From NCBI GenBank assembly GCA_034189385.1, contig JAXHVD010000001.1, forward strand, positions 1 through 64,000: DNA of 64,000 nucleotides, in the 5' to 3' direction. Positions 49,631-63,894 of this stretch are shown here, piece by piece; the stretch's first letter is position 1; the number at the start of each line of letters is the position of its first letter. Origin of the DNA: Thermodesulfobacteriota bacterium. GTDB taxonomy: Bacteria > Desulfobacterota > Desulfobacteria > Desulfobacterales > C00003060. A program made the translations under genes and the position numbers. The notes under the pieces are model-generated. The model made no database searches. It was not told the origin of the DNA and worked only from the letters and a program-made list of their open reading frames with translations.

Positions 49631-49832
49631 GTAACGTTCAAAAGTTGAGGCAAAGGCCTTCAGCGGGCAGTTAGAGAGATAGGGATGATCGCTGAACGCA
49701 GGCATACAGCCGTTGCCATCTACACAAATGGCATGGGCTACCTAAAGGCATTGGATGCCGAAGAGAAGCGATTATCCCTATCTCGAAGTTGGTTGTCCAG
49801 AAATCCACTCAGTCAACACTTTTGAACGTTAC
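49631..49832. mobile_element. 202-bp MITE-like element with 15-bp perfect terminal IRs
   Basis: GTAACGTTCAAAAGT (49631-49645) and ACTTTTGAACGTTAC (49818-49832). Confidence 0.65.
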
Positions 49833-51238
49833 TACTTGATTAGAACTTTTGCTCCACCCTTATGATTCAGCCTTCTACCATCCTTGAAATAGAGGAAAAC
49901 CAAGGTACCCAGGGCGATTGTGCCCAATCCGAACAATGAGGTTATTGGTTTGCTCTTAATGGAAAAGTAGACAATCCAGATGTTGCCTAAGATGAATAGA
50001 AGGGGGGTGATGGGGTATCCGAAGGTCTTATAGTCTCTTTTCAAGTAGGGCTGTTTCATCCTAAGAAGGATCATCCCTATAACGGTGAACATAGCGCACA
50101 GGGAAAGGGTGAAGCCGATGTACAGCAAGAGCTTGTCAAAAGTTGTGGTGAATGCCATTGCAATAGCTATACCTGCTTGCAGCAATATGGCGTACGCAGG
50201 CGTTTTGTGGAGTTGGTTGACCTTGCCAAAGAGCTCGAAGAAAACGCCGTCTTTTGCCATGGCATAATAGACCCTTGGCCCAGCCATGATCATGGCGCTT
50301 AAGACAGAGAGTAGACCCACAGCAATGGCCCCGCTAAAATATTTACTCATATGGTCTCCGAAGAGGGAAACGGCAGATGTTGCTCCCACTTCCAGCACAC
50401 CGGTCATCTCATTTGTCGGAAGGGCGTAAATGTAAACAACGTTCAAAAGCAGATAAAGACACATGACCACAAATGTCCCGGTGAGAAGGGCAAGTGGGAT
50501 ATTCCTGCCCGGCCTTTTGATCTCTCCGCCAAGGTAAGCAGCGGCGTTCCACCCACTATAGGCAAAGGAGATGAAGATCAAAGAGATAGCAAACTTGTCT
50601 TGAAAGACTGAGCCTATGTCCAGCCCTCCGGCGAAATGGGCTGTAGAGCCGCTGCCCAGAAAAAGCCCCGCCGCGATAAAGACGGCAATGAGCCCGATTT
50701 TGAAAACGGTCAGTATGTTTTGCACCCTGCTGCCCAGGAAGACACTATGGTAGTGTATGAGTGAAACAACAACGATCACGGATGCTGCCAGTATGGTGAT
50801 CGGCGATATGGTGAGAACATGGATTCCCAACAGGGGAACGCTGTAACCCGAAATGGGAACGGCTGGCAGTAGACGGAAGGAATAAGTGGCAAAGGCGATG
50901 GAGGCTGCGGCAATGGGGGCAGAAAAGCCTACGATCAAAGAGATCCAGCCAGATAGAAAGGCCACGCCTTTGCCGAAGCTTTCTCGCAAGAAGATATACT
51001 CCCCACCTGCTTTGGGAAACATGGCTCCAAGCTCCCCATAGCAAAGGGCTCCGGATAACGCGAAAATTCCCCCAACAAACCAGCAAAGCAGCATGGTCTG
51101 AGGATTGCCGAGTTCGGCTATAATGAAGCCGGAGGTGGTGAATATCCCCGTCCCCACCATGTTGGCAATGACCAAGATCGTTGCCGTAAAAAAACCGATC
51201 TCTCTTTTCAGGCGGTGGTTATTTAAAGTATTTTTCAA
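49832..51238 (-). CDS. APC/LAT family amino acid permease
   Basis: MVGTGIF, YGELG..P.AGG.Y, FAYSGWN, GEIK.P.RN.P, PRVYYAMA.DG; start uncertain. Confidence 0.93.
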   Translation of the reverse strand: MKNTLNNHRLKREIGFFTATILVIANMVGTGIFTTSGFIIAELGNPQTMLLCWFVGGIFALSGALCYGELGAMFPKAGGEYIFLRESFGKGVAFLSGWISLIVGFSAPIAAASIAFATYSFRLLPAVPISGYSVPLLGIHVLTISPITILAASVIVVVSLIHYHSVFLGSRVQNILTVFKIGLIAVFIAAGLFLGSGSTAHFAGGLDIGSVFQDKFAISLIFISFAYSGWNAAAYLGGEIKRPGRNIPLALLTGTFVVMCLYLLLNVVYIYALPTNEMTGVLEVGATSAVSLFGDHMSKYFSGAIAVGLLSVLSAMIMAGPRVYYAMAKDGVFFELFGKVNQLHKTPAYAILLQAGIAIAMAFTTTFDKLLLYIGFTLSLCAMFTVIGMILLRMKQPYLKRDYKTFGYPITPLLFILGNIWIVYFSIKSKPITSLFGLGTIALGTLVFLYFKDGRRLNHKGGAKVLIK

Positions 51239-51296
51239 AGCTTCTCTTAGTAGCCGGGAACGACCCAAAACGCCAAGGCATGTTGAGCTGTCTCTT

Positions 51297-52280
51297 TCAT
51301 TGTTTGGTGAGGTCTAACCATTTGTAAGGGTTCGTCTCTGCTGTGGTCAATCTTTGCAGCATCTGGGGCGTTACGTCAAACTCTTTTACTACGCCTACGA
51401 AGGCATCGGGCCTTTCCAGGTAGGGGAGCATGCCCAACATGGTCTTCAGCTTGTCCATGTCCTTTCTTCTTGCCTTGTCCCAGTTGAAATCGAACACGAC
51501 GCCCTTTCCCTTGCCTTTCTTCTGGTTCCACACCACGAGAATTCCGGCGGGATTCTCAAATGCAATGTTCTTTTCTTGAGATTCTGTGAGCTTTTCCACA
51601 ATAAGGCTCTTCTTGCCTGCAGTGACGTCCAGGAGCATCTGCACGGCGTCTTCCTTGCAGAAGGCAGGGCTTGCGATCCAGGTATAGCGTTCTCCTTTTT
51701 TAAGGGGATATCTGTCCCTGATCACCTTGGCGATCATATATCCTGAGGAAACGCCCGCGCAGAGGTGATTGTGGAATTCGGCGCATTTCAATAGATCCTG
51801 CGGTGCACCGGAAGCCCAGGCGTGGGCAATAGTGCCAACAGTGAAGGCGTCTGGGGCAAGGGGACCGCCTACCTCCTTCCAAAACCCTGGCTTGGAAGTG
51901 ACCTCTAGGCCAAGGTCGTATTGCTGCGTCTGCACCTTATCCCCGTCGCAGTCTATCACAAAGCATTGTTTGTTCTCCTTGCGAAAGAGGGCTATTTTCA
52001 ACGGGTGGCACGTGGCCCTGTGGAAAAACAGAAGATTGCCCTTGCCAACCGAGCACCCAGTTTCTTCTTGGATCACATCGACATAGGCTTCCGATGTCTT
52101 CCCGTTGACCCTCACATAGGTGGCGTCCGTTATGGCGCAGAGCTCTGTGCTCCCCTTATCAGCCTTCAGCTCTTTGAGCCCTTTTTTTATAGCATCCCTG
52201 ACATTGGCGGCGTGCACATTGCTGCTGACAACTAAGCATAAGGTTGCGGCCACGGCGATGAGTCGGATTGTTCGATTCAT
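51297..52280 (-). CDS. Exported FmdE family protein
   Basis: Signal peptide; FHNHLCAG..SG and CKEDA metal motifs. Confidence 0.85.
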   Translation of the reverse strand: MNRTIRLIAVAATLCLVVSSNVHAANVRDAIKKGLKELKADKGSTELCAITDATYVRVNGKTSEAYVDVIQEETGCSVGKGNLLFFHRATCHPLKIALFRKENKQCFVIDCDGDKVQTQQYDLGLEVTSKPGFWKEVGGPLAPDAFTVGTIAHAWASGAPQDLLKCAEFHNHLCAGVSSGYMIAKVIRDRYPLKKGERYTWIASPAFCKEDAVQMLLDVTAGKKSLIVEKLTESQEKNIAFENPAGILVVWNQKKGKGKGVVFDFNWDKARRKDMDKLKTMLGMLPYLERPDAFVGVVKEFDVTPQMLQRLTTAETNPYKWLDLTKQ

Positions 52281-52299
52281 TTTAAATCCTCTATCGTCT

Positions 52300-53061
52300 C
52301 TAAAGACCAATCGTCAAAGATGCGCGATAGGAGTAATCATCACATTCGGCCTTGTCTGGATAAGACTCCTTGTGAGTGGTCGTGAACAGCCAGGGCCCCT
52401 TGGCAGTGAGCTTGATCTGGACAAGGCCATCGGCATTGGTCTCCGCCTCCTGAGCCCAGTGATGCTTCTCTTCTGTAAAGCCTTCGTAAACTGCGCTGAG
52501 GGTTGCACCTGAAAGGGGTTTTCCTTCAAACAGGACCTTTAGGGGCAAGGTGTCGCCGACTTTAAGATCGGCAGGCGATGTCATGGCCACGATTTCCAGT
52601 GGATTTTGAGTCCTCTCTGAGAGATCTGCCTTCTTATCCCCGACGGTGATGAGCGCTTTGGCGCTCATCCTAAAGGCAAAGCAGTAGGGCGCGTCGGGAA
52701 AGTCGTTCTTGTTACCGAGCTTGTGACCATCTGCGGTCCTGGAGACAAAACCGGGCTTGACTGCGGCAACGATCTCATAGGCCCCTTTGGTCTTGGGGGT
52801 AAACTTGTAAAAGGAAGGAAAGATCTGTTCAAGCGGCAATTCTTTTCCCTTCGGATCCAGGGCGTAGACGCGGTCAAGGCGGCCCTTTTTTAGGATCTCA
52901 TCGCGGGGATACTTGTGCCCGAATCCGAGCTCGATCCATATGGTCTCTCCTGCCTCGGGAGCATATTTGCTTGCATTGAGCCAAAACATATGCGCCTGGG
53001 CTGAAGCAGCTATCCAGACAGGTAATAAGGCCAGCGCCACAACAACGTACCATTTTCTCAT
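52300..53061 (-). CDS. DUF4198 family periplasmic protein (metal-uptake associated)
   Basis: AQA|HMFWL, GH.YP, LEIV...P....GD....VLF.GKPL, T.ADG...G.W. Confidence 0.88.
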   Translation of the reverse strand: MRKWYVVVALALLPVWIAASAQAHMFWLNASKYAPEAGETIWIELGFGHKYPRDEILKKGRLDRVYALDPKGKELPLEQIFPSFYKFTPKTKGAYEIVAAVKPGFVSRTADGHKLGNKNDFPDAPYCFAFRMSAKALITVGDKKADLSERTQNPLEIVAMTSPADLKVGDTLPLKVLFEGKPLSGATLSAVYEGFTEEKHHWAQEAETNADGLVQIKLTAKGPWLFTTTHKESYPDKAECDDYSYRASLTIGL

Positions 53062-53199
53062 TTCCCTTTTCCTCCTTCTCTTTAACCTTGCTCAATCGTG
53101 TCTTTCTTTGAGCGGCCTGTCCATTAGATCTGCCCAGGCAGAGTAAACTCGAAGCCGAGGCCGCTGTCCAGCTTTTTCTTGACTGTTGGCTGACGGGCG

Positions 53200-54081
53200 C
53201 TAACTTGCGGTCTTGTAACGCTTCGTCAAAAAATCTCCCACATAGATCAGGTGTTCAAATGGCAGCTTGCCCCCCGTCTCCCTCACAATCGTGTCAAGGG
53301 TGCCGCAGACAACCTTTTCTTTGTCCTTATAACCGGCATAGAGCACAATGGCTATAGGCGTTTCAGGGGGATAGTGGGTTTTCAGTTTGTCCACGACCTT
53401 TTCCAAGTCCAGGAACATGGTAAAAAAGACCATGGTGGCCTGGTGACGAGAGAGTTCTTCAATGCTGTCAGGTCCGGCATATTCCTCCCGTCCAAAGGAG
53501 GCCGTCAGGATGACCGAATGGGCCTTGACTCCTCGCGTCACGCCCTTGACCAGAGCCGCGTTGGCGGCATTGAAACAGCTTATACCGGGAACAATCTGAG
53601 GATCCAGATCTTCAAAGGCCTCCGCATACCACATATTCGGGCCATAGATCGTAGGGTCTCCGCTGCAAAGCACAGACACCACCTTGCTTTCTTTCACTGC
53701 CGTGCGAACAATCTTTGTGATGTCGTCAAAGGCCTTCATCTTCTCTTCATAACGGAATCGTTTATTCCTTCTTGCCTCCTCAGGAGACTTGCCATAGATG
53801 GCAAATATTCCAAAACCGGGATCATGGATTTCCTTCCCCTGCAAAAGGTCGGGAAATTGGTCTGGTATTTCTTTTCTGCAAAAGATGATGTCCGATCCCT
53901 TGATCGTGCTGACTGCGCGCAAGGTGAGGTTATCTGCGTCGCCACTGCCCATGCTGACGAGATAAAGCCCCGACTTCAACGTAGCTGGCTTCTTGTCCGG
54001 GCCGCAACCGACGGTGAGCATCATGAGGAAAACTGCTAGGGTGGTGATACCTATCCAACTGTGAACAAGGAACCTGTGCAT
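53200..54081 (-). CDS. Tetrapyrrole (precorrin-4/CobM-like) methylase homolog with lipoprotein signal
   Basis: LTVGC lipobox; GSGD...LTLRA, SGDPTIYG, VPGISCFNAANAAL, Y...TPIAIV..AG. Confidence 0.85.
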   Translation of the reverse strand: MHRFLVHSWIGITTLAVFLMMLTVGCGPDKKPATLKSGLYLVSMGSGDADNLTLRAVSTIKGSDIIFCRKEIPDQFPDLLQGKEIHDPGFGIFAIYGKSPEEARRNKRFRYEEKMKAFDDITKIVRTAVKESKVVSVLCSGDPTIYGPNMWYAEAFEDLDPQIVPGISCFNAANAALVKGVTRGVKAHSVILTASFGREEYAGPDSIEELSRHQATMVFFTMFLDLEKVVDKLKTHYPPETPIAIVLYAGYKDKEKVVCGTLDTIVRETGGKLPFEHLIYVGDFLTKRYKTAS

Positions 54082-54199
54082 TCAAGCCTCCTTTTTGGAA
54101 TTGTTTGCCCGGTCTCACGTGACCTGGTATCTCTGTTTTTTCACTATAGGTCGCCGAAGTTTAGATCCTGGCTGTGATCCGGTTTTCAAGAAGTGTGTA

Positions 54200-56263
54200 T
54201 CACAGCCTGACTTCGATCCCGCCGTAGAACATGCGATCCGGCATGGGATACTCGTAGTCTTCTTCGTAGTCCTCATCCAATATATTCTCGCAGCCCACAA
54301 AGAGATAGGCCGTGTCCTGGATAATAGGATAGGTAATGATGCCGTTAAGGAGGAAATAGCTATCCATTTTTCCCGTTGCAGCAGTGCTCAGGTCCGACTC
54401 CCCTAAAGGGACCTCCCGGGAATCCACCCATTTCAAGGTCAGCTTTGCCAGCAACCCGTTATCCCTGTGGTAGGCAATGCCAATATTGAATTTGTGATCG
54501 GGCAGCTCGCTGATCTCATCTGAGACATTGGTGAGATCCAGGATGTCGCCCTCCTTGTCACTGGTTTGAAAGGTGTAATTGGCAAATAGAGAGACATTGT
54601 CATGAATCTGTGATTCCAGGTCCAGCTCGAAGCCTGTCAGTTCAACATTGTCGATATTGTAGACCACGCGGCTTGGCTTGTAGCCGAAGATCCATCTTAA
54701 GTAATCATCAATATCATAGTAATAGACCTTCGCCGACAGGGTCGTGTTCCTGATGCCCTTATAAGTGGCTCCTATTTCGTACTGCATGGCGTCTTCAAAG
54801 GTGAGGCTTTTTCTGTCAGGCGGCTGGTATCCGTTGTAGTACCAGTAGTACTTGGGAAGGGTTGGGAAATTAACGGCCCTTGCCACAGTAACAAAGGTCT
54901 CAAGATCGGATGTGGGAAAATAGAAGAGGCCGAACTTGGGAGAGACGGGGGTGTCTTCTATCACCTCAGCGTCCTCGTCATCGTCGCCCTTGTAGTCGTC
55001 CACCCTAAGACCCAGGTAAATGTCCAGATTCGACAATGCAGACCAGCGGTCCTGGATGAAACCTGAGTTGACCTTGGAGAGTTCATGCTTGTCCCCGGAG
55101 TTCTCGAAGGTGCCCGAAAGGAAGGTTGTGTCCACATACTTGTAGGTCGTTCCTCCATAGCCCAGGTAATTCCCCTCGACCCCAGCCTTCAGGGCATGGT
55201 CTGACAGGATCTTTTCACTTTTGAGACTCCAGCCCCAGGAGTAGTCTGACGGACAGTCCCTCTCCAGGGCAAGATACCCCGTGGCACGCTCAGAGATGTA
55301 GTCCGTGCGGTCTTCATCGTTGAGGTAATACCGTGCCTGCCAGTCGACCCCCAGCAAGCTCTTTTCCACGAGAACGTCCCATTCATATCTCTCCTTCCAA
55401 TAATAGCTTTCATCTCCGTGGGTTGTGCCCCCCTTCCATCTAAAGCCTGGTCCCACAAGCCGGTCTCCGGTGCTTTCCGGGTAGTCGTTATCGTAATAGG
55501 GCGAATCCTTCTGGTTCTCAACAATCATGCCGTACTCTCCCTCGTTGTAGCGTAACCCTGCCTTGAGCTTACCGTCACCAGGTAAATAGTAAGTGAGAGA
55601 GAGGGAGGCATCTTTTCTCTCCAGAAAATTATTTCGGAGATACCCATCGCTTTCACGATAACCGCCGCCTGCCACCAATCCAAATTGCCCTATCCGTTTT
55701 GAAATCAATGCCTGGGTATCATAGGTATAATACTCTTTGGCCCCTGCTCCCAATACGACCTCCAGTTCTTCCGATGGCTCCTTGGGGACAATGTTCACCA
55801 CACCGCCCAGGGTATTGCCATATTCGGCTAAGGCGGCCCCTTTTATGACCTCAATGCTTTCCACATCCTGAAGGGAAAGCATGCTCCAGTCCACGAAGTA
55901 GCCTCCACGCACGCCTGCACCGGTCAGTGGCCTGCCGTCAAGGTTCACAACGTACCTGTGCTCATCTAGCCCTCGTATTTTCACCATAGACCCGTCGGGC
56001 GTGCCGAGGCTCTGCCTGCCGATGTCGATGCCGGACATGGTGTCCAGGACATCTACTGCCGTGGCACCGACCTGATAGGTGGATTCTTGAACAGGTACCT
56101 CCACTGTCAGCTCGTCCATCGCCTTGGGGGCAGTGACCACAATATGTTCTAGCTTGACAGGTTCTTCATCTCCATCCATTGTCTCTTCCGCCCAGCTCGT
56201 CTGGGCCAGGAGCAAAAACACCATTGCCACAAAGACAGAAACCAGTTTCAACCTCTTCATCAT
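54200..56263 (-). CDS. TonB-dependent outer-membrane receptor
   Basis: Signal peptide, IVVTA, IRGL, IEVIKG....YG..LGGVVNI, ENILDEDY, R.FYGG.E..L. Confidence 0.95.
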   Translation of the reverse strand: MMKRLKLVSVFVAMVFLLLAQTSWAEETMDGDEEPVKLEHIVVTAPKAMDELTVEVPVQESTYQVGATAVDVLDTMSGIDIGRQSLGTPDGSMVKIRGLDEHRYVVNLDGRPLTGAGVRGGYFVDWSMLSLQDVESIEVIKGAALAEYGNTLGGVVNIVPKEPSEELEVVLGAGAKEYYTYDTQALISKRIGQFGLVAGGGYRESDGYLRNNFLERKDASLSLTYYLPGDGKLKAGLRYNEGEYGMIVENQKDSPYYDNDYPESTGDRLVGPGFRWKGGTTHGDESYYWKERYEWDVLVEKSLLGVDWQARYYLNDEDRTDYISERATGYLALERDCPSDYSWGWSLKSEKILSDHALKAGVEGNYLGYGGTTYKYVDTTFLSGTFENSGDKHELSKVNSGFIQDRWSALSNLDIYLGLRVDDYKGDDDEDAEVIEDTPVSPKFGLFYFPTSDLETFVTVARAVNFPTLPKYYWYYNGYQPPDRKSLTFEDAMQYEIGATYKGIRNTTLSAKVYYYDIDDYLRWIFGYKPSRVVYNIDNVELTGFELDLESQIHDNVSLFANYTFQTSDKEGDILDLTNVSDEISELPDHKFNIGIAYHRDNGLLAKLTLKWVDSREVPLGESDLSTAATGKMDSYFLLNGIITYPIIQDTAYLFVGCENILDEDYEEDYEYPMPDRMFYGGIEVRL

Positions 56264-56393
56264 TAACCTCCTGATTACCTCCTGACATCCTGCCCCTCGT
56301 CCAAGACCAGCGTGGCCCGCGTAGTAGCAGACAGTGCACAACAAACCATTTGAGGCCTCGCTCAGACCCACGTAGCTTCCTTTTGCTCTCTTC

Positions 56394-57080
56394 TTATGTG
56401 AGCTCAAAGACCATGGTGAGTTCCAGGGGTATCTCGCCCCTGAACAGTTGTCGAGGCGGTTTCGGGAAAGGGGCGGCATCTCGGACGGCCCTGAGGGCCG
56501 CGTCATCCAAGGCGCAACAGCCGGAGGCCTTGGCCAGCGTCAAGGCTTGGACTTCGCCTTTAGGGGTAATGACAAAGCGTATTACGACCTCTCCTTCTAT
56601 TTGTCGCAATCTTGCTGTGTCAGGGTATTGCTTATGTCTTTCTACCTGGAATCTTACCATGTCGAAGTAGCTACGGGAGGTTGCATAATCGACGGCATTC
56701 TGTGTCAAATCCACGGGGTCCCAACTGGCTACGTCCAACTTGGGCATGGCCGGAATATTCGGCGTGGCTATTGGTTCCACAAGACTTTCGGGCTCAGCCC
56801 TTTCAACCGGTTCCATTTTCGGGGGCTTCAGCCGGGGAATGACTGGCTGGGTGGCCTGCAATCTCTTTATGTCCTGCTGTTCAGGCGGTGTCTTGGGCCT
56901 GTGGCGCGGCCTGGGAATGCTTCTTGAGAAGGGTTTAGACAGGTCTTCAACGGTCAACTCAATGTAGCTCAGGGCATTTGACGTATAGATCCCCGATACG
57001 TGCAGAAAAAGGAGAAGATGTATACAAGCAGAAAAGCCGATCAGACTGCGAAGAAGCCAGTTTGGCTTTCTATTACTCAT
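56394..57080 (-). CDS. tonB: Energy transducer TonB
   Basis: S..IH TM helix, Pro-rich linker, YP..AR...EG.V, LD.AAL.AV..A.PFP.PP. Confidence 0.93.
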   Translation of the reverse strand: MSNRKPNWLLRSLIGFSACIHLLLFLHVSGIYTSNALSYIELTVEDLSKPFSRSIPRPRHRPKTPPEQQDIKRLQATQPVIPRLKPPKMEPVERAEPESLVEPIATPNIPAMPKLDVASWDPVDLTQNAVDYATSRSYFDMVRFQVERHKQYPDTARLRQIEGEVVIRFVITPKGEVQALTLAKASGCCALDDAALRAVRDAAPFPKPPRQLFRGEIPLELTMVFELT

Positions 57081-57089
57081 GGTTCACCT

Positions 57090-57497
57090 CTACAATTCCT
57101 TTTCAGTAGCCAGGCAAAGCCTCCCGGCCCCAGCGGCCTTGGCGATGTCCATCACCTTTACGGCCTTATTCAGGATGACCGCACGGTCAGCTCGAATAAC
57201 GACTAATTTGTCTTCCCGGTTTCTCATCATCTCCGTCAGCCGGTCAAAAAGGCTGCCAAGAGAGACTTCTTCGGCACCGAGGAAGGCCCTGCCTTGCTCA
57301 TCCACGTATACGGTAACCACTTCCTCGGTTTGAGGGGCAGCAGCCTTGGCCTGAGGCAGCTTGATCTTGATGCCCTCCTCCACCATAAAATTGGTGGTCA
57401 AGAGAAAGTAGATAAGAAGGAGAAAGACAATATCAATGAGCGACGTCAGGGGCACCTGCGGCGCAATACGGTTTCTGCGTTTAGGATGCACGAGCAT
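57090..57497 (-). CDS. exbD: Biopolymer transport protein ExbD
   Basis: LIDIVFLLLIYF, LP.A, IRAD, V.VMD. Confidence 0.93.
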   Translation of the reverse strand: MLVHPKRRNRIAPQVPLTSLIDIVFLLLIYFLLTTNFMVEEGIKIKLPQAKAAAPQTEEVVTVYVDEQGRAFLGAEEVSLGSLFDRLTEMMRNREDKLVVIRADRAVILNKAVKVMDIAKAAGAGRLCLATEKEL

Positions 57498-58191
57498 GAT
57501 GACTTTCCTTCAGGGTTGGTTCTGTGCAGACAGGACGAACGACGCTCTTTGCCGGGCTCTGCTGGACATGTCCTGTGTGGTTTCCCGGCCGCTTGCCTAT
57601 GGCCTTGATGAAGGTCACGATCCCGTCGCGGAGTTGGGCCTCGTATCGGTCCACCCTGGAGACCAGGTAGCTATGGGCCACCATGGTGGGAAGGGCTACG
57701 GCCAGACCCAGGGCCGTGGTGAGCATGGCCTCCCAGATGCCTCCGGCAAGAACGGCTGCATTGACCTTGCCCCCCATTTGCTGAATCACCATGAATGCCT
57801 TGATCATGCCCAAAACGGTTCCCAAAAGACCCAAAAGCGGAGCGATGTTTCCAATGGTTGCCAGTGCTTGGAGGTACCGGGAGAGTCCTCTCACTTCCTC
57901 CTCTGTAGAGTGAACAATGACCGTCTCCAGGGTTTCACGGTCTTGATCCACCACCTCTATGGCGTGGGCCAAGATCCGGCCCATGGGAGACCCGCTTCCG
58001 CCTGCAAGTGTTAGTGCCTCCTTGTGCTCACCTTTCCTGATGTGGTGGGCGACATTTCTCACCAACCCAAAGCCTCGAATCTTGACCTTGGCAAAACGGA
58101 TAAGCCTTTCCAAAAAGATCGCCAGAGCGAGGACGGAACACGTTAAAATGGGCCCCACCAAGATGCCCCCTTTTGCGAGAAAGTCCATCAT
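57481..58191 (-). CDS. exbB: MotA/TolQ/ExbB proton channel
   Basis: APLLGLLGTV.GMI.AF, GI.EA..TTA.GL.VA. Confidence 0.93.
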   Translation of the reverse strand: MMDFLAKGGILVGPILTCSVLALAIFLERLIRFAKVKIRGFGLVRNVAHHIRKGEHKEALTLAGGSGSPMGRILAHAIEVVDQDRETLETVIVHSTEEEVRGLSRYLQALATIGNIAPLLGLLGTVLGMIKAFMVIQQMGGKVNAAVLAGGIWEAMLTTALGLAVALPTMVAHSYLVSRVDRYEAQLRDGIVTFIKAIGKRPGNHTGHVQQSPAKSVVRPVCTEPTLKESHHARAS

Positions 58192-58251
58192 GTTGTTAAG
58201 CCTCCTGTATCCATAGTTCCATAGTAACGTTAGAACTTGAGATAAGCCCCT

Positions 58252-60075
58252 TTAGCCCTCTGCCGAGGTCTTTTCCTCCACAGCGGGCGTGTCCACCGTG
58301 TCTGGTTCCCCATCGAAATTCAGATCTCTTGACCGCTTTACCAGGGCCTCTGACTGGTCGTATTCCTCCCACAGATCTGGTTTCCCATCGCTGTTGGTAT
58401 CTTCCTCCACGCTGGTGAGGTTCCCCTTGTCGTAGTAATACCAAGTGTCCAGGCGGCCATCTCCGTCGGTATCCTTTTCCGCCCGGATCGCCTCTTGAGA
58501 GTCGTTGTAATGCCAGGTGATGGTCAGGCGCCCGGCCCCCTCGTCATCTTCCTCGCTCTTTGTAAGCTTGCCGTCAGCATCATATTGCTCTCTTAGGTTG
58601 AGGCATCCGTCACTGTCTTCATCGATCTCTCTTGACCGTAACGTCCCGTCCTGATAGCAGTAACGACCCTCAGGCTTGCCGTCACCATTGGCGTCCAGCT
58701 CGGTCACCATGGACCAGGGAGGTCTCTTGAACCACTGGGTGATCTCAAAGCGGCCGTCACCGTCTTTGTCTTGAATCAGTTTCTGTTTCTTACCCTTGTC
58801 GTAAAAGACTTTCAGGCTCACCCTCCCACCGCCTGTGGGGTCTCTCTCCATCCTCGCCAGCGCTCCCTCTTCATAGTACTCCCGGGTGTCGATGGTTCCA
58901 TTGAGGTCCGTGTCGCTTTCCACACGCTCCTTTTCGTGTTTGGCGTTAAAGTAGATGGTTACGTCCGGCCTCCCATCTTTATTGTTGTCCCGGCTCTGCA
59001 AGGCAGGCTGGCCGTTCTTAAAGAGGGTCGCGGTTTCTTTGAAGCCATCCCCGTCTCCGTCATGGACCATCTTGACGGGCTCCCCTTTGCTATAGGTCGT
59101 AATCCGGTCGATCTGGCCCGTATGGCTGGTGTCTTCCTCCATCTTTTCCGCATGGCCCTGGGCGTCAAAATGGATGAACACGTCCTTTCTGCCATCAAAA
59201 TTCGTATCCTTTTCCTGATAGGTGGGCTGTCCTGCATCAAAGCGGGTGATGACGTCAAATTGTCCGTCGCGATTTCCGTCTTTCTTCTGTTCAACCGGCT
59301 CCCCGCCATCAAACCGAGTGACAAGCTCAAACCTACTGTCCTGGTCGGCATCCTTTTTCTGCTCCCACAACTCGCCCTGGCGATAGAGGCGGACCACCTC
59401 CATCTTACCGTCTCGGTCCAGGTCGTGACGGCTCTCTTTGGCAAGGCCCTCTTGGTCAAAAAGGGTGACCTTCTCGACCTGGCCGTCGCCGTCTTCATCC
59501 CTACGACTTTCAACAGGTTTGTCATCTTGAAAGGTCTGCCAGACGTTGACTCTCCCATCGCCATCGGTATCTTTGGAAGAAAGGGAGAGACGGCCTTCCC
59601 GGAAAACGTAGACGGTGTCGAACTTGCCATCTTGTGTCGTGTCTTTTTGCACTTTCAAGGGACGCTCTTGTGCATCAAAGGATATGATCTGTTCTACCCG
59701 GCCGGTCTGGGCAGAGGCACGTTCGCGTCGGATTCTTTTACCGCTTTTGAAATAGTCCCAAGTATCTACCTTGGTGTCATGATCGGTGTCTGTTTCGATC
59801 CGTTTGATTTGATCGCCTTCGTAGTACTGCCAGCGGTCCATGACCTGGTCTGCATTGCCGTCAATCTCCAGCTTGACAAGGGTCCCCTCTTCGTCAAAAT
59901 GGGCGACCTGGTCTATCTTCCCGTCCCCATCGCTGTCCTGCTCCACGACCTTGACCTCCCCAAGGAGGGGTATAGGCCAAAGGACAATGGCCAAGGCACA
60001 GATGACCGTGCAGACAATCCCACAGTGTTTGACGTAACATCCTGTCATCGCTTCTTTTTTTCTGAATGGGTCCAT
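58252..60075 (-). CDS. Exported protein of 23 tandem ~23-24-aa repeats with DxDxDG loops
   Basis: Signal-like N-terminus then repeats such as EKDTDGDGRLDTWYYYDKG. Confidence 0.85.
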   Translation of the reverse strand: MDPFRKKEAMTGCYVKHCGIVCTVICALAIVLWPIPLLGEVKVVEQDSDGDGKIDQVAHFDEEGTLVKLEIDGNADQVMDRWQYYEGDQIKRIETDTDHDTKVDTWDYFKSGKRIRRERASAQTGRVEQIISFDAQERPLKVQKDTTQDGKFDTVYVFREGRLSLSSKDTDGDGRVNVWQTFQDDKPVESRRDEDGDGQVEKVTLFDQEGLAKESRHDLDRDGKMEVVRLYRQGELWEQKKDADQDSRFELVTRFDGGEPVEQKKDGNRDGQFDVITRFDAGQPTYQEKDTNFDGRKDVFIHFDAQGHAEKMEEDTSHTGQIDRITTYSKGEPVKMVHDGDGDGFKETATLFKNGQPALQSRDNNKDGRPDVTIYFNAKHEKERVESDTDLNGTIDTREYYEEGALARMERDPTGGGRVSLKVFYDKGKKQKLIQDKDGDGRFEITQWFKRPPWSMVTELDANGDGKPEGRYCYQDGTLRSREIDEDSDGCLNLREQYDADGKLTKSEEDDEGAGRLTITWHYNDSQEAIRAEKDTDGDGRLDTWYYYDKGNLTSVEEDTNSDGKPDLWEEYDQSEALVKRSRDLNFDGEPDTVDTPAVEEKTSAEG

Positions 60076-60139
60076 ATTCCGCTCTTAGTACACGAGGCAC
60101 TTAACCCGCGTCTTGTGCGCACTTTGCCCCTTCCCCTAC

Positions 60140-60155
60140 AGCATCAAGTGTGCCA
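60140..60155 (-). promoter_or_regulatory. Sigma-54 promoter of TonB operon
   Basis: TGGCACACTTGATGCT (GG-N10-GC). Confidence 0.75.
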
Positions 60156-60240
60156 AGAGGTATGAAGTGAATAATCGCCATAAATTTTAAAGAGTTAGTC
60201 CAGTTAGCCCTTTCTTGAGGTCCTGTGTCAGAGGGCAAGT

Positions 60241-60278
60241 TTAGAAGAATTGCGAACAAGGATTAGAAGAATTGCGAA
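60241..60278. promoter_or_regulatory. Tandem enhancer (UAS) sites
   Basis: TTAGAAGAATTGCGAA twice, 22-bp period, ~90-120 bp upstream of -24. Confidence 0.7.
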
Positions 60279-60313
60279 ATAGGTGAGGGCGAACCTGGAT
60301 TGGGACAAAAGGG

Positions 60314-61699
60314 CTACTGGATTTGAAGCTTCTTTTTGCGGTAGCGAAAGGTGTGGTGGTTTAGGTTCAGGAGCTTTGCGGCCTTGCTCTCATTGCCTCC
60401 AGCCATCTTCAGGGCTTCTTCGATATAGTGTCTTTCCAAAGATTCTTGCACAGCGGTAAGGTCGATGCCGGTAGCCGGAAGGGGGGGGGACTCTGCCGCC
60501 ATTGGGCTATGGGCGGTTTGACCTCCACGGGAAGCCTCAATCCCAAGGTCCTTCAGTGCAATCTCCGACCCTTTGCCGACGAGAACTGCCCGTTCTATCA
60601 CATTTCTCAACTCACGGACATTGCCCTCCCAATGGAGTTCATTCAAGGCGCCTTCGGCTTCACCAGAGAGTCTGCTAAAGGGTTTGCCGTGTTTCTGACT
60701 GAATTCTACCAGGAAGTGTCTTGCAATGGGAACGATGTCGTCACGCCGCTTATCAAGGGACGGCACCTCTACTTTAATAACGGCGAGGCGATAGTAAAGA
60801 TCTCGTCTGAAATCGCCTTGTTGTATCATCATCTCCAGGTCCTTGTTGGTGGCAGATACGACCCGGGTCTGGACTCGCAGCTTCTTGGTCCCCCCCAACC
60901 TGTAAAATTCCCCATCTTCAAGAAAACGCAAAAGTTTTGCCTGGGCTGCCAAGCCCAGGTCGCCCACCTCGTCTAGGAACAGGGTCCCCTTTTCCGCCTC
61001 TTCTACCAGCCCCTTTTTCCCGGATGTATTTGCCCCGCTGAAAGCCCCCTTCTCATATCCAAAAAGCTCGCTTTCAATGAGGTCGTGGGGGATAGCCCCG
61101 CAATTGACAGTTATCAGGGGGCCCTCAAAATGGGGGCTCCTGTAGTGTATGGCATTGGCAATGAGTTCCTTGCCTGTTCCGGTCCCACCAAGAATCAGGA
61201 TCGGCGTGTCAGGGCTCTTGGCCACCTTTCCTATAAAGTCCATCACGTCTTGGATGACGTTGCTCTCTCCTATGAAGCAAGGCAGGTTCTCCCTGAGATA
61301 TTTCTCTTGCAGGAGCTGCACTTCTTTCCTCAGGCGGACCGTCTTGAGCGCGTTTGTGATGGTCACCTCTAGGCCGTCCATATGAATCGGTTTTACCACA
61401 TAGTCGTAGGCCCCCAGCTTCATTGCAGAGACTACGGTTTCGATATCCTCATAAGCGGTTATCATGATGACCAACACATCAGGATGGCGCTCTTTCACCT
61501 TGGCAAGGGCTTCAAGCCCGCTCATGCCGGGAAGTCCTATGTCAAGCAATATGAGATCAGGGGGGGTCTTTCCCATGGCTGCAATGGCCGTTTCAGCCGA
61601 GGCAAATCCCTCCATCAGGTAATCCGGCTCAAGGGCCATGGTGATGCCTTCCCTTATGGTTTCTTCGTCGTCCACGATGTATATGGAATATGAGATCAT
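60314..61699 (-). CDS. NtrC-family sigma-54 response regulator
   Basis: IVDDE, LLDIGLPG, GGTGTGKE, GAFSGA, W.GNVREL, HTH. Confidence 0.96.
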   Translation of the reverse strand: MISYSIYIVDDEETIREGITMALEPDYLMEGFASAETAIAAMGKTPPDLILLDIGLPGMSGLEALAKVKERHPDVLVIMITAYEDIETVVSAMKLGAYDYVVKPIHMDGLEVTITNALKTVRLRKEVQLLQEKYLRENLPCFIGESNVIQDVMDFIGKVAKSPDTPILILGGTGTGKELIANAIHYRSPHFEGPLITVNCGAIPHDLIESELFGYEKGAFSGANTSGKKGLVEEAEKGTLFLDEVGDLGLAAQAKLLRFLEDGEFYRLGGTKKLRVQTRVVSATNKDLEMMIQQGDFRRDLYYRLAVIKVEVPSLDKRRDDIVPIARHFLVEFSQKHGKPFSRLSGEAEGALNELHWEGNVRELRNVIERAVLVGKGSEIALKDLGIEASRGGQTAHSPMAAESPPLPATGIDLTAVQESLERHYIEEALKMAGGNESKAAKLLNLNHHTFRYRKKKLQIQ

Positions 61700-63894
61700 C
61701 TTTTTTCAACCCTTTTTTCCACGGGGATTTCAATCCTAAACTCTGCACCGCCCCATTTACTCGAGTTAACAGATAATGATCCGCCGTGGTCTGATATGAT
61801 TCTATGGCTGAGGCTCAGCCCTATGCCTGAGCTGTCGCTTTTGGTAGTAAAGAAGGGATCGAATATCTTTTCTCTGTCGCTGAAAGGCACACCAGGCCCG
61901 GAGTCTGAAACCTTTATGACAATGTGGTTGTTCTTCTCAAAGGAGGCTATCTCCACTTTCTTGGGTCCCGCTGCTTTTCTCATGGCTTGGGCAGCATTGG
62001 TGACCAGGTTCAAGATCACCTGTTCAATCAGATGGCTGTCCGCATGGCACTGAGGTAGCGCCGGGGACAATGCCTTTTCAAGCTCAATTCCCCTTTTTCG
62101 CAGCGTCACCGCAGAAAGATTGATCGCCTCTTCAATGGATGTATTGATGTTTGTCAAAGCCAGCTTGGGCCGACTCGGTTTCGAGAAATCCATCACCCGT
62201 CTTACGACCGACTCTATTTTCCCTGAAGCAGACTGGATTTGTTCGACGATTCTTTTGGCCTTTTGCAGGCCTTTTTGACCAATGCCCTCAGAATCGCCAA
62301 GAAGTTTTTTCAGGGTCGCCAGATAGATATTGATGCCCGATAAGGGATTTCTGATTTCATGGGCAATGCCGGCAGCTACGTGGCCCAGGGAAACCATCTT
62401 TTGCTTGGTGAGGACCAGTTGCTCGAATTCCTTGGCCCTGGTAATGTCCATCATGTTCACCAGTACCGCTCGCTTGCCTTGGTACTGGATTAGACTGGCT
62501 CGGCAGTGGACCCATCTCATGTCAACGGCGTTGCCTATCCTGTCCATTGGATAGAACCTTAGTTCTGTGTCCAGGGCCTGGGCAGCCCCTGACAAGACCT
62601 TCTGGTAAAAGCGGCCAAAGGCTTCTGCATCATGGGGATGAATGCTTTGGAAATCTTTGAAGCTAAAGGGTTCAGGCAAAGGCCCAAAAAGCCTTTCCTG
62701 TTCGGGATTCTTATATACGATTTTGTCTTCTTGTATAATGAATATACCGGTCAGGGAGTTGTCCACCAAATCACGCGAGCGGCGCTCGCTTTCCCGCAAG
62801 GCGTTAGCTGATGCAGCCATTTCCTTCAAGTACTTGGCTTCTGTCTCAAGCTCTGCCTTTCGTCTTTGGGTCTTCAATAAGAACGCGCCGCCAATTCCAA
62901 AGAGAAATACGACAATGACTGCAAGGGCAAATATGTTCCTTGCATGTTTATTGATCGGTCCTGCAATCTCATCATATGGCAAGGCGACGACCAAATTCCA
63001 ATCCCTGTCTCCTATGGCCACTCTCTTATAGGCTACCAACTCATTTTCATTGGTCTCACAATTGACGAAGAGACCAAATCCGCTGTCTTCTACCTTCAGT
63101 CTATTGAGGTAATTATGATCCTTCAGAATGTGCTCCTTCAGGCCGTGTTTGTGAAAACGTTCCCCCCTTACCAGATGCATCTTCCTGATGACGTCTTCAA
63201 TGGACAGCCCAATGAACCTCTTTTCGGGGTGTGAAAGAATGACATCTTTGTAATCAAACATCCACGCACAGCCTCGGCCTCCCAGCTTGACCGGCTGGAT
63301 GAAACGCTCTGAGATGGCGTCCAGAGTAATTCTGCGTTCAATGATTCCCCTAAAGTGATTCTCATAGAACACAGGCTCCAACAGTGAGATAGTAAGGGTC
63401 CCTGCCTGGTTGAGGAATACGTCACCAACATACGGTTTGTGCTTCTTGAGGACATAGGCGACACTGGGCCTTTCAGCCAAGTTCTTTCTGCCTTCAGAAC
63501 CGTTCCCTTGCCAGGGTGGAGATCGATGCAACATCACCCCTCGAGCATCGAACAGACAAATGGCATCAACATCGTTCTTGTGGACTTCGTAGAAGAGCTC
63601 CAGTCTAGAATAGCCGAGGTCTGCCAAGTCACGGGAGGTAGCCGTCCCCTTTTCTGCCTGTAAGAGTGTCTCTTGTGCCATCGTCTGCAGGGCCTCTGAA
63701 TGCAGCGTGACGAAACCTTCAACGCTTCTAGCCGTTGCCTTTGCAATGGTGAGCAACTGCTGTTCAGTCTGGTAGACCATTGTATCTCTAAACTCCCTTT
63801 GGGAGACGTATGCAAGGCCAAGGACGACTGCGATGACAACCACACCGATGACAATGCCTATTGCCACGGTCACAGATGTTCTTATCATTCTCAT
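61696..63894 (-). CDS. Membrane sensor histidine kinase (Cache + PAS)
   Basis: Two TM helices, periplasmic Cache-like region, PAS, AHEIRNPL, NLVTNA, DSGPG, GIGL. Confidence 0.95.
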   Translation of the reverse strand: MRMIRTSVTVAIGIVIGVVVIAVVLGLAYVSQREFRDTMVYQTEQQLLTIAKATARSVEGFVTLHSEALQTMAQETLLQAEKGTATSRDLADLGYSRLELFYEVHKNDVDAICLFDARGVMLHRSPPWQGNGSEGRKNLAERPSVAYVLKKHKPYVGDVFLNQAGTLTISLLEPVFYENHFRGIIERRITLDAISERFIQPVKLGGRGCAWMFDYKDVILSHPEKRFIGLSIEDVIRKMHLVRGERFHKHGLKEHILKDHNYLNRLKVEDSGFGLFVNCETNENELVAYKRVAIGDRDWNLVVALPYDEIAGPINKHARNIFALAVIVVFLFGIGGAFLLKTQRRKAELETEAKYLKEMAASANALRESERRSRDLVDNSLTGIFIIQEDKIVYKNPEQERLFGPLPEPFSFKDFQSIHPHDAEAFGRFYQKVLSGAAQALDTELRFYPMDRIGNAVDMRWVHCRASLIQYQGKRAVLVNMMDITRAKEFEQLVLTKQKMVSLGHVAAGIAHEIRNPLSGINIYLATLKKLLGDSEGIGQKGLQKAKRIVEQIQSASGKIESVVRRVMDFSKPSRPKLALTNINTSIEEAINLSAVTLRKRGIELEKALSPALPQCHADSHLIEQVILNLVTNAAQAMRKAAGPKKVEIASFEKNNHIVIKVSDSGPGVPFSDREKIFDPFFTTKSDSSGIGLSLSHRIISDHGGSLSVNSSKWGGAEFRIEIPVEKRVEKR

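Follow-up and report, generated by a model that had tools for sequence, protein, structure and literature searches.

A TonB-linked operon of Desulfobacterales encoding an exported CbiF-like protein: a candidate cobalt/nickel acquisition pathway

Introduction

Nickel is taken up by TonB-dependent receptors in helicobacters: FrpB4, with ExbB, ExbD and TonB, in Helicobacter pylori and NikH in H. mustelae (PMC7689651). The same review describes predicted cobalt receptors encoded behind adenosylcobalamin (AdoCbl) riboswitches, for example in the set of Novosphingobium aromaticivorans that comprises a TonB-dependent receptor (TBDR), NiCoT and CobW; in the part cited here, it states that outer-membrane receptors specific for cobalt are predicted and that none has been confirmed (PMC7689651). 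Here, we describe a locus in the first 64,000 nt (hereafter, the window) of contig JAXHVD010000001.1 from a Thermodesulfobacteriota bacterium of the order Desulfobacterales (assembly GCA_034189385.1). All eleven genes of the locus are on the minus strand, in the order histidine kinase, regulator, repeat protein, ExbB, ExbD, TonB, receptor, TPM, DUF4198 protein, FmdE-family protein and APC permease, where TPM denotes an exported CbiF/CobM-like TP_methylase homologue (Table 1). A first-pass annotation of the sequence had proposed a two-component pair, an upstream activating sequence (UAS) and a -24/-12 promoter followed by this run of genes through the permease on one strand, an order borne out by Pfam and motif evidence. 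TonB-dependent metal uptake is known as a kind of system; this gene composition is not, and we found no published account of exported TP_methylases or of the gene set in the open-access full-text literature.

The locus resembles those of FrpB4 and NikH in pairing an outer-membrane receptor with ExbBD-TonB as its energy source; import of a divalent, non-iron transition metal, the function of their receptors, is proposed here. Unlike them, the locus family adds an exported CbiF-like protein, FmdE, a LAT permease, a Ca-type repeat protein and a selenocysteine (Sec) or Cys loop motif. Control also differs: FrpB4 and NikH are regulated by NikR, versus a riboswitch or sigma-54 in the locus family. 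As with the AdoCbl-riboswitch cobalt receptors, three sister loci (L046, L056 and L060) have a cobalamin riboswitch before TonB genes and a receptor gene, and L060 ends in a Co/Ni inner-membrane transporter. In contrast to the N. aromaticivorans set, NiCoT is replaced by a LAT-type permease, with or without CbiMQO or a small protein that we call X; there are extra periplasmic proteins, and the window copy lacks the riboswitch.

Several periplasmic proteins offer further parallels. IsDUF4198 of Ideonella sakaiensis, whose gene neighbours include TonB receptors and NikR, binds nickel with a Kd of 18 nM via its N-terminal histidine (PMC12537917), and Zcp of Neisseria gonorrhoeae (PDB 9MHI-9MHO) binds zinc and, in vitro, also cobalt, nickel and copper (PMC12663993). 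The DUF4198 protein of the window is periplasmic and of the same Pfam family as both, and its first mature residue is a histidine as in IsDUF4198. Zcp is described as monocistronic, Zur-controlled and dispensable for uptake (PMC12663993), whereas the window gene lies inside a TonB operon and its product lacks three histidines that differ between the deposited Zcp sequences. Capture of cobalt or nickel by an N-terminal histidine is likewise a feature of the Cbi/NikM(N/K/L)QO importers of the energy-coupling factor (ECF) type with periplasmic accessories (PMC2667541; PDB 9GCB, labelled NikK), and DUF4198-type proteins adjoin CbiM in this genome and in L060, a likeness to the ECF accessories. Unlike these importers, the window locus has no ECF component and its constant inner-membrane gene encodes an APC/LAT permease. 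With BtuB-BtuG/BtuH and BtuFCD the locus family shares a TonB receptor encoded next to an exported binding protein, the presence of several paralogous sets in one genome and, in some loci, B12 riboswitches. However, TPM has the CbiF fold and not the BtuG propeller, no BtuCD is encoded at the locus, and a BtuB-like receptor and BtuFCD are encoded separately in the genome. The periplasmic cobaltochelatase CbiK(P) of Desulfovibrio vulgaris is reportedly an exported B12-biosynthesis fold in a sulfate reducer, and its physiological role is said to be unsettled. An exported CbiK adjoins L046, although its chelatase fold differs from the class III methyltransferase fold of TPM.

Results

A core gene set recurs across Desulfobacterales

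GTDB species genomes were scanned with an alignment of TPM orthologues, and genes in the 46 loci obtained were counted by tblastn. The counts are lower bounds because loci are short or cut by contig ends: 11 of the 46 are under 10 kb, many ending at contig ends. Three of the loci are on the same contigs as three relatives' stretches that were examined separately. Judged by their titles, nearly all come from Desulfobacterales; the cultured Desulfonema magnum 4be13 and Desulfosarcina variabilis are among the sources, as is a SEEP-SRB2 metagenome-assembled genome. The receptor was found in 38 of the 46 loci, the permease in 36 (55-81% identity), the DUF4198 protein in 32 and protein X in 25, followed by ExbB (15), FmdE (14), TonB (13) and the repeat protein (12). 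Among the 35 loci of at least 10 kb, 29 have the receptor, 28 the DUF4198 protein and 30 the permease. The core is receptor-TPM-DUF4198-permease, commonly behind repeat protein-ExbBD-TonB. The neighbourhood conservation that the first-pass annotation had set as its own check is thus seen across Desulfobacterales; FmdE, which it had listed in the gene set, proved facultative.

Among 41 related genomes, strong relatives of TPM (E <= 1e-29) were found in eight, and nine more had CbiF- or CobA-level matches only. Stretches from six TPM-bearing relatives contain the same genes in the same order. A permease orthologue is present in all eight relatives with an exported TP_methylase, and together with the locus counts this upholds the earlier placement of the permease within the set, as a core member. 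A sceptical account would hold that the TonB motor and receptor are one unit and that the TP_methylase, DUF4198, FmdE and permease genes are unrelated genes that happen to lie downstream. Gaps of 118-138 nt between some of the locus genes would suit it, as would the four relatives in which the permease occurs alone. However, the same order recurs in the 46 loci, from several Desulfobacterales families, despite protein identity falling to 30-60%; a single strand carries all the genes; and no terminator-like site was detected between locus genes, the total detected being below the shuffle mean. We give such a chance arrangement very little credence.

Two other features of the sister loci were noted. 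A secreted protein of ~450 aa without a Pfam match is encoded between the receptor and TPM in four loci (L030:3310-4674, L046:8543-9889, L047:7271-8599 and L061:8501-9862; 63-91% identical). In D. magnum, the Acido-Lenti-1 RNA model matches three sites between TPM and DUF4198 genes (L030:6533-6578, 6663-6708 and 9918-9963; 38-41 bits, gathering score 37), which may be a repeated intergenic element.

Cobalamin riboswitches and cobalt genes accompany sister loci

According to Rfam, cobalamin riboswitches are the single riboswitch class in the 46 loci, with five copies in four loci; NiCo, Moco, SAM or any other non-cobalamin riboswitches were not found in them. The riboswitches of L046 and L060 are 140-180 nt ahead of the repeat-protein gene. 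In L056, the riboswitch precedes a TonB2-type motor (DUF3450-ExbB-ExbB-ExbD-TonB-TPR) that leads into receptor-TPM-TPM-DUF4198-X-APC, and in D. magnum it precedes an MFS gene and an FmdE gene directly downstream of a six-TPM cluster. The riboswitch is therefore directly ahead of TonB genes in three of the four loci that bear it. The Rfam scan of the window returned no riboswitch, as the first-pass annotation had said of B12, but the statement does not extend to the family.

Cobalt genes join some of these loci. The L060 operon runs on as APC-X-CbiM-CbiQ-ABC ATPase, and CbiM is encoded 3' of the permease in 4 of the 46 loci (tblastn). True CbiF is encoded in three of the four riboswitch-bearing genomes. 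An exported homologue of the cobaltochelatase CbiK, with a signal peptide and an HGHHHPQH N-terminus, is encoded at L046:262-1155(-) behind its own cobalamin riboswitch (L046:1357-1542(-)), divergent from the riboswitch-controlled TonB operon. In addition, two of the riboswitch-bearing loci are followed directly downstream by BcrAD_BadFG/DUF2229 and HGD-D type genes, of activator and dehydratase or double-cubane-like kinds (L030:17566-20877 and L060:15918-18156).

B12 is thus the sole metabolite-specific signal in the loci, and CbiMQO genes are the sole defined transporter genes that join them. Taken together with the His- and Cys-bearing periplasmic partners described below, these features point to acquisition of cobalt and its companion nickel. 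That the operon is a TonB-dependent cobalt/nickel acquisition pathway is, on this reading of the sequence, possible, if a little short of probable. The metal link made by the first-pass annotation likewise fits the N-terminal-His DUF4198 protein, the invariant HxHxC...C of FmdE and the CbiM(QO) genes beside the permease in four loci.

The riboswitches could also be read as a sign of salvage of corrinoids or other Co/Ni tetrapyrroles. The receptor would then import cobamides or incomplete corrinoids, with the Cys or Sec of its loop 7 ligating cobalt; the TPMs would be periplasmic corrinoid binders that play the part of BtuG or BtuF; BtuFCD encoded elsewhere would complete import; and DUF4198, FmdE and the permease would be accessory. 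Besides cobalamin being the sole riboswitch class, the exported CbiK with its His-rich N-terminus behind a divergent B12 riboswitch favours this reading, and the multiple TPM and receptor paralogues per locus would fit cobamide diversity. However, no inner-membrane transporter of a known corrinoid-carrying kind was found in any locus, and salvage gives no role to the most constant partners, namely the N-terminal-His proteins, FmdE, CbiMQO and the LAT permease. We regard corrinoid salvage as rather unlikely; further evidence that bears on it is given with the receptor, TPM, FmdE and the host genome.

The receptor falls far short of the BtuB models, and its sisters are often selenoproteins

The predicted receptor start was taken at 56263, at a signal peptide (MMKRLKL...), though the open reading frame opens at 56506. 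An AF2 model of the receptor (mean pLDDT 88) has 22 barrel strands by DSSP. Over 370 solved receptors match it at E <= 0.001 in Foldseek, a search that did not discriminate between them: FhuE, FoxA, PqqU, OprC, BtuB and FecA scored similar E-values, and identity to every solved receptor is 13-18%. The copper-ion receptor OprC (PDB 6FOK, 6Z8Q) was among the best structural matches (TM 0.74/0.78, identity 15%). The Cys/Sec motif is missing from the window receptor, and OprC has other partner genes. In OprC, the side chains of Cys, His and Met bind the metal as a bare ion, which sets a precedent for the sister receptors with CxxU or CxxC motifs. Scores against the BtuB models NF007926 and TIGR01779 were 64 bits (cut-off 836) and 53 bits (cut-off 600), in the plug region only; that the receptor is far under both cut-offs is a further point against corrinoid salvage.

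The best NCBIfam match of the receptor was to a Sec-type model, TonB_dep_CU, at 252 bits (cut-off 700). The Sec-type receptor models (NF049944-NF049947) comprise the motif types PUIUD, FCYXU, CU and PCPU, with the Sec motif after strand 13. The corresponding segment of the window receptor, P-TLPKYYW (residues 466-478), contains neither Cys nor Sec. The sequence DCPSDYSW at residue 336 was considered as the Sec position and rejected, as the alignment puts the motif at residues 466-478. Sister receptors beside TPM are often selenoproteins, in which an in-frame TGA yields CQIU, PCPU or PUIUD (e.g., L011:11031-13145(-), L012:5955-8015(+), L016:10015-12066(-) and L017:3615-5681(-)). A census of L030-L075 identified Sec receptors (C[EQ][VI]U, PCPU, PUVUD) in nine loci and Cys forms (CEVC[ST]WGSG, at the same position) in six. 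A hairpin lies 15-16 nt past the UGA in all four Sec-receptor cases inspected. By strand counting in the model, the CxxU/CxxC motif would be in extracellular loop 7, between strands 13 and 14. Sec-type TonB receptors are list entries in the parts of PMC12013277 and PMC13188914 cited here, where no function is given.

The Sec receptors raise the idea that the locus handles selenium or reactive sulfur. Through Se-S or Se-Se exchange, CxxU/CxxC receptors would trap a selenium or polysulfide species, which the periplasmic proteins and permease would then hand on as a seleno- or thio-amino acid. Sec-bearing receptors in 9 of the 46 loci speak for it, as does the capacity of LAT relatives (BasC, xCT) to carry cysteine and cystine, and no specific high-affinity prokaryotic selenium transporter is known according to the part of the review PMC13188914 cited here. 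Yet Cys and Sec are both missing from the motif position in the window receptor, the Cys forms indicate that Sec is optional, B12 riboswitches and CbiMQO are unlinked to selenium, and nothing connects DUF4198 or FmdE to it. The idea is highly improbable. The selenoprotein table of PMC13188914 also has entries for BtuF and the corrinoid protein HgcA in Sec-containing form, which would support corrinoid salvage.

The repeat protein, encoded first in the operon, contains 15 Dx[DN]x[DN]G Ca-type motifs versus 0.2 in shuffles, and it falls in an ESM Atlas cluster that bears the names 'VCBS repeat' / DUF6802 / EF-hand-like. Its orthologues, 42-62% identical, precede exbB in 12 of the 46 sister loci. 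TonB of the window is the sole TonB matched in the assembly by tblastn with this query.

TPM is an exported protein with the CbiF fold

By sequence, TPM is closest to CbiF/CobM (4e16, E 1.6e-20), and the top Foldseek matches of its model (pLDDT 77) are the CobM/CbiF structures 3nei, 4e16 and 1cbf (E about 1e-15). This proximity to enzymes that bind cobalt-precorrin-4, in sequence and in fold, favours corrinoid salvage. TPM has the class III TP_methylase fold and, in alignment, keeps the GxGxGD, GDP and PG loops of true CbiF. Against the CbiF equivalog TIGR01465 it scored 108.5 bits, under the cut-off of 259.65, and two insertions of ~11 and ~17 residues lie between its second strand and long helix. 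In a quick tree, in which several zero-length pairs are a single open reading frame entered twice, the exported TPMs form a clade with 100% SH-aLRT support, which a long branch separates from the three true CbiF sequences included. The tree contains at least four old paralogue groups, and a locus holds up to about six copies.

Signal peptides would place TPM outside the cytoplasm. In the window TPM, the signal peptide ends in a lipobox with predicted cleavage between LTVG and Cys, which makes it a predicted lipoprotein. The first-pass annotation had called the gene a lipoprotein methylase homologue, a description that suits the window protein; the lipobox Cys is confined to its close subclade (P0001, P0008), and orthologues outside it have plain signal peptides. 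Signal peptides of the AxA type were found in 11 paralogues and orthologues, and the paralogues inspected share no consistent twin-arginine (Tat) motif. To our knowledge, there is no S-adenosylmethionine (SAM) pool outside the cytoplasm; we therefore read TPM as a binding protein and not as a methylase. A family-wide metal site was considered and rejected, as no Cys or His is conserved across 12 paralogues. An orphan exported TPM paralogue of ~30% identity is encoded elsewhere in the genome (G000:C2:3458-4357; L014), where the receptor, DUF4198 and permease are not nearby.

DUF4198 and FmdE-family proteins

The signal peptide of the DUF4198 protein is predicted to be cleaved between SAQA and HMFWL, giving a mature N-terminus of His-Met-Phe-Trp. 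Histidine is first after the predicted cleavage site in 28 of 28 orthologues, in the pattern A/S-H-[MN]-[LI]-W. The protein thus has the domain, signal peptide and first mature His of the IsDUF4198 type. It aligns to Zcp chain 9MHK with an E-value of 2e-25, and the three H-to-A positions that differ between 9MHI and 9MHK, presumably the zinc ligands given the paper's three histidine residues, are occupied by residues other than His. A zinc site of the Zcp type is thus probably absent.

The FmdE-family protein begins with a signal peptide, which is followed by HNHLC...C; the match to the FmdE domain covers residues 179-285. Described members of the family have neither this signal peptide nor the additional N-terminal domain; the protein has a weak match to 2GLZ. 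In an alignment of 14 secreted FmdE homologues, H170, H172, C174, C208 and D211 are invariant (HxHxC...C...D). Five loci encode secreted fusions in which FmdE is joined to a nucleoside-hydrolase domain of the inosine-uridine type (PF01156; L012:10913-12412(+), L017:3-1286(-), and also L035, L052 and L070). These fusions point to an organic substrate. Under corrinoid salvage, they could act on a nucleotide loop. A paralogue of the secreted FmdE, 51% identical, is encoded elsewhere in the genome (G000:C64:98808-99785; L027:6806-7798, minus strand) and adjoins a LysE-type translocator, again an amino-acid-type carrier.

The permease belongs to the LAT family and often adjoins protein X

The permease is of the LAT family: among solved structures it is closest to BasC (6F2G, E 3e-50), and the next matches are y+LAT, b0,+AT, LAT1/2 and xCT. 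LAT transporters recognize their substrates through G-[ST]-G in TM1 and aromatic-G-W-N in TM6, and the corresponding permease motifs, VGTGIF and FAYSGWN, are intact. The permease is under the cut-off of every NCBIfam equivalog, with a weak match to S-methylmethionine permease (E 5.5e-10). A candidate periplasmic metal site in the permease was dropped, since HYH (residues 162-164, clade-specific) and C62/C66 probably face the cytoplasm according to LeuT-fold topology; we count it neither way.

Protein X (e.g., L060:13125-13649(+), L054:14000-14563(+) and L082:1423-1917(-)) is ~160-185 aa long and weakly resembles the C-terminal half of DUF4198. A signal peptide is followed by an invariant His-Gly at the mature N-terminus; DGMGH is likewise invariant, and the C-terminus forms a membrane helix. 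In the 25 of the 46 loci that contain it, it adjoins the LAT-type permease, and in one relative the permease-X pair is isolated from the other locus genes. Protein X was not found in the window's genome.

The permease match would also suit uptake of a sulfur amino acid or SAM-related compound (methionine, S-methylmethionine, SAM or S-adenosylhomocysteine) that spares B12 when MetH stalls, with the SAM pocket of TPM binding the compound and the LAT permease importing it. Genes for B12-independent substitutes, metE among them, are commonly under B12 riboswitches, TPM keeps the motifs shared with SAM-binding CbiF, and the nucleoside-hydrolase fusions could cleave an adenosyl compound. However, DUF4198, X, FmdE, CbiMQO and the CxxU/CxxC receptors would have no role, compounds this small usually need no TonB-dependent receptor, and none of the 46 loci yielded a T-box or a riboswitch for SAM or methionine. 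We judge B12-sparing uptake very unlikely.

A predicted two-component sigma-54 circuit is peculiar to the window's lineage

The kinase has matches to dCache_1 (E 5.4e-9; 36 bits, under the Pfam cut-off of 45), HisKA (6.6e-11) and HATPase_c (7e-23), and its stop codon overlaps the start of the activator gene. The activator comprises Response_reg (1.5e-26), Sigma54_activat (2.3e-64) and HTH_8 (3.5e-8) domains and scored 399 bits against the ntrC model, under the cut-off of 559. The 238-nt gap 3' of its gene holds both 21-nt direct repeats, at 60241-60261 and 60263-60283 (spacing 22 nt), and the promoter element TGGCACacttgaTGCT (60155-60140), which lies ~85 nt past the repeats and ~65 nt upstream of the repeat-protein start codon. 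TGGCAC-N5-WTGCW matches the 64 kb at this element only, against an expectation of 0.20 matches; 19 of 100 shuffles give at least one match somewhere. All features of a sigma-54 system are therefore present, namely an AAA+ enhancer-binding protein (EBP), a promoter with -24 GG and -12 GC, and upstream repeats. The repeats are candidate activator-binding sites. The 16-mer repeat core has exact matches at these two sites only in the 4.13-Mb assembly, which suggests that the regulator serves this promoter alone.

Upstream of the kinase gene are a hybrid PAS kinase and unrelated genes only. Kinase-like matches were found in 4 of the 46 sister loci and regulator-like matches in two, all at 23-34% identity (tblastn), and are non-orthologous at that identity. 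In nine other loci the repeat-protein gene has 500 nt of sequence upstream, and no -24/-12 motif was found in them. The sequence signs of control by a two-component system and sigma-54 put forward in the first-pass annotation thus stand for the window and do not recur; as judged from these sequences, such control is a local invention, peculiar to the window's lineage.

The host genome looks like a B12 auxotroph with a probable need for nickel

The window's assembly is 4.13 Mb and 90% complete. It has four TP_methylase genes: one CobA/HemD-like, a 301-aa open reading frame on contig C34 that, as a guess from its length, is RsmI-like, the window TPM and its orphan paralogue. CbiF above the cut-off, CobS, CbiB and CbiD were not found in the assembly, and the genome therefore looks like that of a full B12 auxotroph. 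True CbiF is also absent from six of the eight relatives with an exported TPM (completeness 67-97%). These likely auxotrophs would need corrinoids, as salvage would predict. Five cobalamin riboswitches are present elsewhere in the genome: one precedes the BtuB-like receptor gene, another BtuFCD, and three are at further loci (riboswitch-linked regions on G000 contigs C56:84306-91598, with the BtuB-like gene on C56, C32:4793-8101 and C34:81988-82176). The genome's B12 receptor and BtuFCD thus lie elsewhere, behind riboswitches, a point that supports the first-pass interpretation. In this auxotroph the BtuB-like receptor, BtuFCD and three further loci are riboswitch-controlled and this operon is not, which argues against corrinoid salvage. 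A 556-aa protein without a Pfam match is encoded 3' of the BtuB-like receptor gene, with paralogues near other riboswitches of this genome.

The locus is the one TonB-linked set of this genome without riboswitch control, as would be expected if it met a demand for metal and not for B12. Several [NiFe] hydrogenase genes are present. Since the genome looks like that of a B12 auxotroph, the metal served here is probably nickel. No ABC or ECF importer, including one of the Cbi/NikMNQO type, was found at the locus (Pfam, 49.8-63.9 kb), as claimed at first pass; a DUF4198-porin-like-CbiM-CbiQ-ATPase set lies ~290 kb away on the same contig (C1, ~349-354 kb).

Layout of the locus

Domains were called with Pfam profiles, and proteins were compared with NCBIfam equivalog models at their curated cut-offs (Table 1). 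Past the permease, at a distance of 275 nt on the same strand, is a gene for a receiver-only response regulator (window:49143-49556(-)), to which a rubrerythrin gene is convergent (window:48678-49172(+)). A match to group II intron domains D1-D4 (Rfam RF02001, 53 bits) lies at window:27898-28064(+).

Table 1. Features of the locus, in window coordinates
Feature	Position	Strand	Evidence
Sensor histidine kinase, 732 aa: dCache-like periplasmic domain, PAS, HisKA, HATPase_c	61696..63894	-	Pfam
NtrC-type sigma-54 activator, 461 aa: receiver, AAA+, Fis-type HTH	60314..61699	-	Pfam, NCBIfam
Two 21-nt direct repeats, candidate UAS	60241..60283	-	Repeat search; putative binding sites
Sigma-54 -24/-12 promoter element TGGCACacttgaTGCT	60140..60155	-	Motif search
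Ca-type repeat protein, 607 aa, first operon gene	58252..60075	-	Motif count; N-terminal hydrophobic segment
ExbB	57481..58191	-	PF01618, E 1.2e-31
ExbD	57090..57497	-	PF02472, E 3.8e-30
TonB	56394..57080	-	PF03544, E 2.7e-15
TonB-dependent receptor, 687 aa from signal peptide	54200..56263	-	Plug PF07715, E 3.1e-14; barrel PF00593, E 4.9e-30
Exported TP_methylase homologue (TPM), 293 aa	53200..54081	-	PF00590, E 2.6e-38
DUF4198 periplasmic protein	52300..53061	-	PF10670, E 4.9e-44
Secreted two-domain FmdE-family protein	about 51297..52280	-	PF02663, E 2.3e-20
APC/LAT-family permease, 478 aa, 28 nt past FmdE	49832..51268	-	PF13520, E 2.2e-58

Discussion

A pathway for cobalt/nickel acquisition could operate as follows. 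The dCache kinase would sense a periplasmic ligand and phosphorylate the NtrC-type activator, which would bind the two 21-nt repeats and open the sigma-54 promoter. ExbB-ExbD-TonB would energize the receptor, with the Ca-type repeat protein perhaps an accessory, and the receptor would admit thiophilic divalent cobalt or nickel, as the ion or as a small organic chelate. In the periplasm, the metal would be taken by DUF4198, through its N-terminal His, and by FmdE, through HxHxC...C, while TPM would bind an organic carrier or tetrapyrrole-like ligand without acting as a methylase. The LAT permease, which keeps its amino-acid-binding motifs, may carry a metal-amino-acid complex or an amino-acid-like ligand inward; alternatively, free metal may enter via the separate CbiM-CbiQ-ATPase set of the genome. 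In B12 producers, the system would be repressed by B12, like cobalt importers. In auxotrophs such as this organism, the riboswitch would be absent and the need would be for nickel; in this genome, the dedicated dCache kinase and sigma-54 activator may have taken over control.

Several observations weigh against cobalt/nickel acquisition. Forty-two of the 46 loci have no riboswitch, and CbiM is in four only. With true CbiF absent from six of the eight TPM-bearing relatives, supplying cobalt for B12 synthesis is not the general purpose of the locus. The window receptor has neither Cys nor Sec at the motif of its sisters, and the permease, which occurs without TPM in 4 of the 41 relatives, has the amino-acid motifs of LAT transporters and is closest to the exchanger BasC, whose family is not known to transport metals. 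A Cbi/Nik ECF set, which includes a DUF4198 of its own, and a gene of the NicO family are already present in the genome. A metal-ion model leaves TPM unexplained, with its old paralogue groups, multiple copies and the glycine-rich loops that it shares with CbiF. The nucleoside-hydrolase-FmdE fusions, as noted, indicate an organic substrate. Metal binding, transport and the identity of the metal are, moreover, predictions from sequence, as are the processing in the periplasm and the final step through the permease that the first-pass annotation had put forward.

Three of these features, the diversified CbiF-fold proteins, the amino-acid-type permease and the nucleoside-hydrolase fusions, are unexplained by cobalt/nickel acquisition as such and suggest that the imported species is an organic chelate and not the bare ion; corrinoid salvage accordingly stays the main rival. 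A more specific proposal, which we consider decidedly unlikely, is a periplasmic 'metal-from-chelate' pathway. In it, Sec/Cys receptors would import an organic complex of cobalt or nickel (a corrinoid, a metallotetrapyrrole or an amino-acid-type metallophore), and CbiF-fold proteins would hold the ligand without methyl transfer. N-terminal-His proteins and FmdE would strip and carry the metal, and the LAT exchanger and the membrane-anchored His-Gly protein would import the amino-acid-like part or a metal-amino-acid complex. If true, this pathway would supply the first cobalt receptor of the outer membrane to be defined, give the class III methyltransferase fold its first role outside the cytoplasm and link a LAT transporter to metal for the first time. 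The probability left over by the readings set out here belongs to something that we have not thought of.

Sulfide keeps cobalt and nickel at vanishing free concentrations, and hydrogenases, CO dehydrogenase and corrinoid enzymes depend on these metals. How the anaerobes of sulfidic sediments acquire them is poorly known, and the locus family provides concrete candidates, some in the cultured D. magnum 4be13 and D. variabilis. The exported TPMs also call for caution in metagenome surveys, where they should not be counted as B12 biosynthesis: this genome has two such genes and none of the four B12-pathway markers searched. More broadly, Sec-type TonB receptors, exported CbiF-like proteins annotated 'precorrin-4 methylase' and secreted FmdE would be linked in one testable pathway.

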